Source: Octopus vulgaris
Taxonomy: Eukaryota
NCBI GenBank assembly: GCA_951406725.2
Contig: OX597838.1
Coordinates: 32,550,001 to 32,614,000, forward strand
Direction: 5' to 3'
Length of the DNA: 64,000 bases
Below are positions 33,186 through 33,840 of the stretch, in pieces; position 1 is the stretch's first letter, and every line of letters starts with the position of its first letter. A model generated the notes under the pieces. The model worked only from the letters and a program-made list of their open reading frames with translations. It was not told the DNA's origin and made no database searches. The position numbers and the translations under genes were made by a program.

Positions 33186-33405
33186 TACATATAAATATAT
33201 ACACACACACATGCCTGCTATAAACACTTGGTAGACACCATAAAGTTGTTGGTATTAGGAAGAGCATCCAGCTGTTGAAACAAGCTAAAATGGACAACTG
33301 GAGCCTGGTGCAATGCCAGAATGGAAAACAAATGTTATATGACAATGATGGAGCAGGGGATCCATCAAACCCATCTAAACACATAAATGCAAAACGTTAA
33401 TTAAT

Positions 33406-33780
33406 ATTTAAATGGCAAATATACTTCACGATGTGTTGCAGCTACTGTTTATAAATCGCTCTAAGATTTATTATTGCTTGCTTACACCTTTCCGATATCA
33501 GTGTCTTTGCGATACTGGAAAAAGGATAAGTGTTTGTGAAGGGAACCTACTTTTCATCGACAACTGTGATTGTCACACGCCGATGACGGGTCAATACCCA
33601 GAAACTCGAGTCTGTGTGTATCATAAGTTGGAGACGGGAAGGATGGCTTCCCTTCGCAAACACTGATAGGGCACAGAAAGTGTGTCGAAAGCCAGCTGGA
33701 GGAGGTGTCCTCCTGGGGCTACAAACTACAGTAGCGTCCACCCTTAGGGGTTAGCCATATTTAAACGGCAAATATACCTC
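33406..33780 (+). mobile_element. retrozyme-like non-coding insert (353-bp monomer + 25-bp terminal redundancy, 12-bp TSD)
   Basis: atttaaa(t/c)ggcaaatatac(t/c)tcacg at 33406-33430 and 33759-33783. acgttaattaat at 33394-33405 and 33781-33792. Internal hammerhead fold. Confidence 0.7.
33574..33618 (+). ncRNA. minimal type I hammerhead-like ribozyme (U4C variant)
   Basis: cacacg-CCGATGA-c-GGGT caat ACCC-a-GAAA-CTCGAG-TC-tgtgtg. Palindromic stem III, GUC site. Confidence 0.65.
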
Positions 33781-33840
33781 ACGTTAATTAATTTGTTTCC
33801 TTTTTAATCTGTTCATCTGTTTGTTTTTGTTATCGTGTAG

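Follow-up and report, generated by a model that had tools for sequence, protein, structure and literature searches.

The window analyzed here, the whole 64,000-nucleotide stretch of the Octopus vulgaris genome, includes exons of a gene for calcium-independent protein kinase C (PKC), one of which, at 33841-33921, matches residues 325-351 of the octopus protein. The intron preceding this exon, 31318-33840, carries a short repeat inserted in the sense orientation. The features of the insert and the flanking exons are given below; monomer coordinates run from q1 to q353, with q1 at 33404 and q209 at 33612, and S and T denote the two sites at which the 3' ends of the members of this repeat family are fixed.

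31186-31317, plus strand: upstream exon of calcium-independent PKC (protein match, transcript-like contigs)
33394-33405, plus strand: 5' copy of the target site duplication (TSD), 12 bp; its last 2 nt are equally compatible with q1-2 of the monomer
33404-33756, plus strand: a single young-subfamily monomer of 353 nt, q1-q353 (sequence comparison with the family)
33473-33479, plus strand: second fixed 3'-end site, T, the 'tailed' end, q70-76; internal in the window copy
33529-33665, plus strand: predicted long rod, q126-262, with the hammerhead at its tip (91% of cells paired, weak covariation)
33574-33618, plus strand: type I hammerhead fold with predicted cleavage (from the sequence; conserved between the old and young subfamilies)
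33757-33783, plus strand: start of the next unit, q1-q27, which terminates at S (q23-29), the first of the two fixed 3'-end sites
33781-33792, plus strand: 3' copy of the TSD, 12 bp; its first 3 nt also fit q25-27
33841-33921, plus strand: PKC exon following the insert, hinge region (spliced to the preceding exon in 4/4 contig sets)

The insert is real and is a member of an already known class, the animal non-LTR retrozymes. The 12-bp target duplication proposed in a sequence-only reading of the window is confirmed as an exact direct repeat, ACGTTAATTAAT, at 33394-33405 and 33781-33792, and its length is the usual one in the family. The terminal redundancy (33404-33430 versus 33757-33783, 27 nt with 2 mismatches) indeed has the period of 353 given in that reading, but its length is 22-27 nt instead of exactly 25 bp; because it overlaps both copies of the duplicated target, the unambiguous insert is 33406-33780. 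The monomer has a GC content of 45% and departs in 15 places from the majority sequence of 33 monomers; the window copy, like its siblings, is about 4% away from the family majority. The redundancy had been interpreted as a trace of copying around a circular RNA. The window copy belongs to the simple, S-ended class and happens to be 5'-truncated at q1-3, just past one unit; because it is such a short-end copy, its redundancy alone is no proof of a circle. We infer that site S (q23-29) is the start of reverse transcription. Elsewhere in the window, at 57009-57058 on the plus strand, a 50-nt piece of an older copy (q285-335, 82%) is also found in a PKC intron in the sense orientation.

The insert contains one ATG-initiated frame of 84 aa at 33412-33666, and despite this frame the earlier statement that there is no convincing ORF stands. 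The best Pfam match (E 0.11) is not convincing, and a homolog search with the frame was empty. Of the young copies, 17 of 41 keep the frame open, and of the old ones 0 of 6; a frame of at least 84 aa arises in 26 of 500 shuffles. The poor conservation, the shuffles and the lack of a convincing Pfam match or homolog speak against it as a gene.

The claim of a type I hammerhead is borne out, its elements being readable in the sequence together with the predicted GUC cut after 33612 (q209), 228 nt upstream of the exon. The fold was read by hand because Rfam gives no match (zero at the gathering threshold over the window and at E of at most 10 over the insert). Stem I (33574-33579/33613-33618) comprises 6 bp; the core, CCGAUGA at 33580-33586, carries U4C; a C33587/A33600 mismatch lies at the base of the 4-bp stem II (33588-33591/33596-33599); the GAAA is at 33601-33604; and stem III consists of 2 bp with a palindromic UCGA loop. 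In the window copy, the change C210T replaces a G-C pair beside the cut site with G-U. Within stem II (33588-33599), C>T changes at q194-195 are frequent in the family, in 15 and 24 of 65 loci, with G-U pairs kept. The predicted fold of the monomer is more stable than those of the shuffled sequences (z -5.89, 0/100 as stable), the hammerhead, when imposed on the fold, lies 5-6.5 kcal/mol higher than the predicted minimum in a nearest-neighbor model that does not count the core contacts, and covariation is weak (13 pairs versus 10.2+-2.0 in shuffles, 70/500).

Between the majority sequences of the young and old subfamilies, the ribozyme differs at 2 of 51 positions, whereas the rod arms differ at 23 of 94 (p=0.001) and the remaining sequence at 30 of 177 (p 0.02 against the ribozyme); this slow divergence of the ribozyme suggests selection. 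The sequence-only reading had flagged U4C as a potential weakness. The substitution is present, but it is a trait of the young subfamily and not decay of the window copy: canonical U4 is found in 22/22 old rows and U4C in 35/38 young rows. By our own count, U4 occurs in 43 of the first 100 of 534 core-motif matches, which is a mix of older copies and CpG decay. According to PMC3088659, U4C reduces activity in vitro yet permitted viroid infectivity.

A search of the octopus genome yielded 3737 candidates, 40 of which were scored and are 92-96% identical, and the 27-mer spanning the unit junction has 509 exact genome matches versus 0 for the control. Because this 27-mer is exact in only 38 of the 66 junctions of loci from the first genome search, we estimate about 900 junction copies in several hundred loci. 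Tandem arrays include those of locus L022 (5 units) and locus L197 (9 units), both free of ORFs between units; in L197, the hammerhead is present in all 8 complete units and in the partial first unit. Monomers are 1.7-5.9% away from their majority sequence. The older subfamily, with the canonical core, is 76-86% identical and is represented by 2090 candidates. The element proposed in the sequence-only reading is accordingly not single-copy, as would have counted against that reading, but a protein-free, hammerhead-bearing retroelement of retrozyme size that has hundreds of copies and forms tandem arrays.

Family sequence is present in contigs of the organisms designated A, C and D; contigs of A span both junctions of the PKC-intron insertion and contigs of C its 3' junction. 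It is also present in contigs of one run (X1), for which the RNA status is guessed and in which neither strand nor circularity is visible. No empty target site was found among the joints listed in three DNA-size contig sets, one of which (X20) has no listed contig there. A signature of RNA editing is absent across 111 loci, with 54 rare A>G and 51 T>C changes, and no LINE was found at a fixed point of the unit in the 9 interrupted or odd copies inspected. One copy (L025:2149-2377) contains an element of about 230 bp that has terminal inverted repeats and whose insertion point is a TTAA of the retrozyme repeat (q5-8).

The ends of the copies were analyzed in the first 100 listed 27-mer matches (contigs C1-C4), which correspond to 68 loci; this set omits duplicates and the loci from the length-biased first search, and long copies are somewhat under-represented in it. 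The 68 loci consist of 46 head-to-head inverted pairs, 21 simple copies and 1 other. The 3' ends cluster at two sites separated by about 45 nt, S (q23-36, 58 ends, mode q29) and T (q63-89, 55 ends, mostly q71-76), and the 5' ends are variable. Among the inverted pairs, 43 of 46 combine one S with one T end, and S/S or T/T combinations number 0 (0.5^43, about 1e-13). L110, which was counted among the simple loci, carries two T ends at a distance of 750 bp, but these lie within a larger inverted duplication. Duplications of at least 10 bp, mostly 12-13 bp, flank 21 of the 28 inverted loci outside microsatellites, compared with 4 of 756 cross-paired flanks, and just 2 of 14 simple loci. Targets are AT-rich or (TA)n, and 26 of the 68 loci touch (TA)n. 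The copies are therefore polar, and random circular permutation is excluded by the fixed 3' ends. The differently permuted copies predicted earlier were not seen, the variation being confined to the 5' ends; the fixed ends that the same reading would have taken as a refutation exist at the 3' side, as two sites, and not at the 5' side. The S and T ends, the inverted arms and the targets show the insertion footprint of Penelope-like elements (PLE), including the PLE 'tail'.

The two arms of a pair probably share their template. In 49 clean S/T pairs (39 from the 68-locus set and 10 from the biased set), derived alleles are shared between arms at 39 of 4956 sites (0.79%) within loci versus 0.17% between loci. 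The 5' stop points of the arms correlate (rho 0.61, p 3.5e-5, n=39), with a median gap of 21 nt compared with 50 nt in permuted pairs (39 pairs). Private marks, defined relative to 111 sampled loci, occur in both arms of L155 and L198, and four are present in all 9 units of L197. Counting against a simple monomer circle, only 14 of 126 locus-private alleles at doubly covered sites are found in all pieces; most of those that are not are presumably later mutations. In the 5-unit array of L022 (113-1881), two variants take turns over units one to four, a pattern that a two-unit template or duplication of a dimer would leave, and the 5' part of the first, partial unit of L197 differs from the other units. 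Neither the alternation in L022 nor the first unit of L197 is explained by a single monomeric circle. Correlated arms could also be produced by fold-back of the first cDNA, which accounts less simply for the fixed S end.

Copying ran on without a break across both the unit junction and the ribozyme site, a point in favor of the earlier inference. Among 110 arms, 30 reach q215, and 26 of these 30 pass q205; only 4 of 30 arms end at q205-215, so that no pile-up of 5' ends at the predicted ribozyme cut was seen. Because 26/30 arms pass the ribozyme site, cut linear monomers are not the main template. The uncut template is likely a circle, and an uncleaved tandem transcript fits equally. A cut monomer primed at S or T would yield copies of at most 216 nt with no whole ribozyme, so that selection on cleavage would point to re-ligated circles.

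The octopus genome contains intact PLEs with reverse transcriptase (RT) and GIY-YIG domains, with a 781-aa frame in 16 of 148 matches. The 781-aa frame belongs to a young intact family (L091-L094; for example, G000:C2:17353000-17361500) with copies 98-99% identical, whose terminal repeat shows, by eye, repeated CCAAT-like and CRE-like motifs and a TATA-like box. A second family (L096:2321-5483 and L100) has the same layout of inverted arm plus tail as the retrozyme repeat: the arm is 766 bp long and identical, and one end bears a tail of about 30 nt. Its minimal hammerhead-like motif reads C at position 4 of the core. A third, GC-rich family (L196:2170-6910; 2058 candidates) is 27-31% identical to the others and has a very long CA-rich 3' region with a minimal hammerhead-like motif at the end; its 5' (TA)n run holds a young retrozyme pair. 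By eye, the hammerhead-like motifs at the 3' ends of these two families (L096, L196) have C at position 4. The fourth family (L198:2277 onward and L226-L250; 2895 candidates) is also young, with 97-99% identity, and shows at its 3' end a GAAA motif and no recognizable canonical core. A further hammerhead-like motif (L101:4015-4077, also in L035), with a perfect stem I of 14-16 bp and the core CCGACGA, lies on the strand opposite to the neighboring PLE.

None of these four families shares monomer sequence at a PLE end or in a pseudo-LTR (pLTR), with 150 of 6136 GIY-YIG candidates scored, and no nucleotide match to the monomer was found in 30 GIY-YIG loci or in the L196 PLE. Sixteen extended PLE loci contained just independent repeat copies and a 29-nt antisense match (E 0.28); in 50 loci of two further PLE families, the sole match was the query locus, L226; and in L195, which has two ribozymes 2.3 kb apart, no PLE ORF was found between them. 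The copies in L196 and L198 lie in (TA)n runs directly upstream of ORFs of two different PLE families, an adjacency that we read as a shared target. No RT/GIY-YIG ORF was found in the 353-nt unit or joined to it, and judging from its sequence, the repeat is not an autonomous, endonuclease-encoding (EN+) PLE.

Taken with what is known of PLEs, these observations outline a mechanism. PLEs are described as inserting in the form of partial tandems truncated at the 5' side, accompanied by an inverted partner and a tail of 30-40 bp that is often confined to one end (PMC8557442), and a purified PLE is reported to nick and extend both strands of AT-rich DNA, with two internal start sites on the RNA delimiting the tail (PMC11167929). 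PLE-type mobilization of the non-autonomous octopus unit is, in our judgment, very likely. We also hold with good confidence the fuller reading that a protein-free 353-nt hammerhead repeat is inserted in trans by the RT/GIY-YIG protein of a PLE, probably from a circular RNA. Under this scheme, tandem units, for which no promoter was found, would be transcribed; the hammerhead would cut out monomers, to be closed by a host ligase; and the PLE protein would nick both target strands 12-13 bp apart, with one nick priming at S (q23-29) and the other at T (q70-76) of a single shared RNA. Both cDNAs would stop at similar places and be end-joined or, alternatively, one arm alone would be joined, as in the window copy. 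That a pair of PLE-type enzymes copies one 353-nt circle twice at once, each enzyme unit priming from a different nicked target strand, always one at S and the other at T, with a stop at a similar place, is a tentative proposal to which we give slightly less than an even chance. The switch of the young subfamily to the weak U4C core may favor uncut templates.

The closest rival retains the PLE-driven insertion but takes as template a linear, uncleaved transcript from a tandem array instead of the circle, with a ribozyme that is slow or protein-gated. U4C, the C/A mismatch and the G-U pair of the window copy would slow cleavage (PMC3088659), and in the PLE studied in vitro ribozyme cleavage is described as dispensable and unprocessed RNA as the main template (PMC11167929). 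The arrays of 5-9 units are possible sources of such transcripts, the alternating variants of L022 and the chimeric first unit of L197 are in line with them, and the read-through of the cut site in 26/30 arms fits equally well. However, the ribozyme is the most conserved part between the subfamilies (p 0.001), which suggests that cleavage matters; linear templates cannot yield copies longer than their source; and the 350-390 nt retrozymes of mussels are reported to be mostly circular (PMC7229834). We regard the uncleaved transcript as a possible template, on the doubtful side; given PLE-type mobilization, we lean toward a circle over an uncleaved tandem.

Two further readings dispense with a separate unit or with RNA altogether. 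The unit might be the pseudo-LTR or the 3' end of an autonomous PLE and the copies its 5'-truncated pieces, given that PLEs, too, have fixed 3' ends, a tail, inversions and a hammerhead, that Xenopus retrozymes are reported to match pLTRs (10.64898/2026.07.22.740005) and that the copies in L196 and L198 are immediately upstream of PLE ORFs. In these two loci, however, a (TA)n run separates the repeat from the PLE, the PLE families differ, and the repeat is present in 0 of 48 other copies of the same PLEs within the loci fetched. The junction of q353 with q1 is direct and the arrays are ORF-free. With two PLE proteins as queries, tblastn found just unrelated fragments, in 2 of 108 young loci and in 2 of 29 further old loci, L165 being the query PLE's own locus. 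This origin is improbable. A repeat propagated at the DNA level, whether a satellite, a MITE or a rolling-circle DNA element, with a hammerhead-like motif present by chance, would account for the empty Rfam result, the tandem arrays and the lack of a strand-biased substitution signal of an edited RNA stage. It is at odds with the polarity of the copies (fixed 3' and variable 5' ends), the absence of terminal inverted repeats at the fixed ends, the 12-13-bp duplications and the selectively conserved, complete ribozyme fold, and we consider it exceedingly improbable. Trans mobilization by a PLE protein is the reading that we retain.

As for the host gene, the sense orientation of the insert, the predicted cut 228 nt from the exon and the presence of the insertion in contigs of the sets X18 and X19, from two organisms, could indicate that the hammerhead is retained because it cuts or otherwise regulates the PKC pre-mRNA, and nicking of this pre-mRNA had been suggested before. 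The suggestion found no support: the exon ending at 31317 is joined to the exon starting at 33841 in 4/4 contig sets (from 4 studies, with the RNA status guessed), assembled contigs being blind to partial cleavage of the intron, and the window copy has an additional weakening change beside the cut site, C210T. Furthermore, this copy is about 4% away from the family majority, like its siblings, and intronic insertions in the sense orientation are expected given hundreds of copies; among Xenopus retrozymes, 42-44% are reported to be intronic (10.64898/2026.07.22.740005). Regulation of PKC is thus highly improbable, and the window copy is most likely a neutral passenger. The window also contains, at 3751-6939 on the minus strand, a 1062-aa open frame with RVT_1 and zf-RVT domains, a LINE-type retrotransposon antisense to PKC.

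The octopus family combines the traits of two groups of elements. With retrozymes it shares the unit size (353 nt, inside the class range of about 150-450 nt), a GC content under 50% (45%), the lack of coding capacity, a predicted type I hammerhead in each unit, a multi-copy tandem organization, no LTR layout and target duplications longer than 4 bp (12-13 bp here). With PLE-mobilized sequences it shares two fixed 3' ends, a tail at one end only, 5' truncation, an inverted partner and an AT-rich or (TA)n target. The class is known, and a PLE origin and PLE mobilization of animal retrozymes have already been proposed (10.64898/2026.07.22.740005); the window copy is an ordinary member with no sign of an effect on PKC. 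The route by which animal retrozymes return to genomes is stated to be open (PMC7229834; 10.64898/2026.07.22.740005). The octopus family offers a countable insertion footprint that matches PLE biochemistry, with two start sites and extension of both strands, and it leads to definite predictions: reverse transcription should start at q23-29 and q70-76, the two nicks should be separated by 12-13 bp, and the circle should be joined at q209/q210. If the proposed mechanism is correct, the strict S/T pairing, the shared variants and the correlated arms would be genomic evidence on the way in which animal retrozymes and PLEs integrate, and the 353-nt RNA would be a minimal substrate in vitro.

In L1 twin priming, a head-to-head 5' inversion results from priming at both nicked strands. 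The octopus repeat shares the head-to-head inversion, but its arms start at fixed internal sites, copy overlapping sequence and have no poly(A) tail. The metazoan non-LTR retrozymes described by Cervera and de la Pena (2020, PMC7229834), such as the 350-390-bp repeats of mussels, resemble the octopus family in the protein-free unit, GC content under 50%, tandem copies, TSDs longer than 4 bp and stable fold, and the axolotl HHR_Amex2 of the same source is likewise described with a stem III of 2 bp closed by a tetraloop and with a mismatch where stem II begins. The octopus family differs in its host, a cephalopod, none being mentioned in the main text of that paper; in the U4C core of the young subfamily; in its copies, which are mostly sub-unit in length and head-to-head two-armed, not arrays; and in its cleavage and circles, which are predicted here. 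No papers on cephalopod retrozymes turned up in the open literature searched, and the supplement of PMC7229834 may list cephalopod hammerheads.

The EN+ PLE Poseidon of Anolis (PAc; PMC11167929) and the general PLE layout (PMC8557442) have in common with the octopus repeat the two fixed 3' ends, the tail at one end, the inverted, 5'-truncated partner, the AT-rich or (TA)n targets and a hammerhead upstream of the ends. Unlike these elements, the octopus repeat has no RT/GIY-YIG ORF, a tail of about 45 nt and not 30-40, and no nucleotide match to four PLE families of its own genome. The vertebrate retrozymes attributed to PLE pseudo-LTRs (Li, Clavereau and Pollet 2026, 10.64898/2026.07.22.740005) likewise co-occur with PLEs as dispersed monomers with few arrays, PLE mobilization has been proposed for them as well, and 8 of 9 of those of Xenopus are reported not to have cleaved. 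Their link to PLEs, as presented in that work, consists of co-occurrence and pLTR homology, whereas the link of the octopus family, in which pLTR homology was not found, is the insertion footprint.
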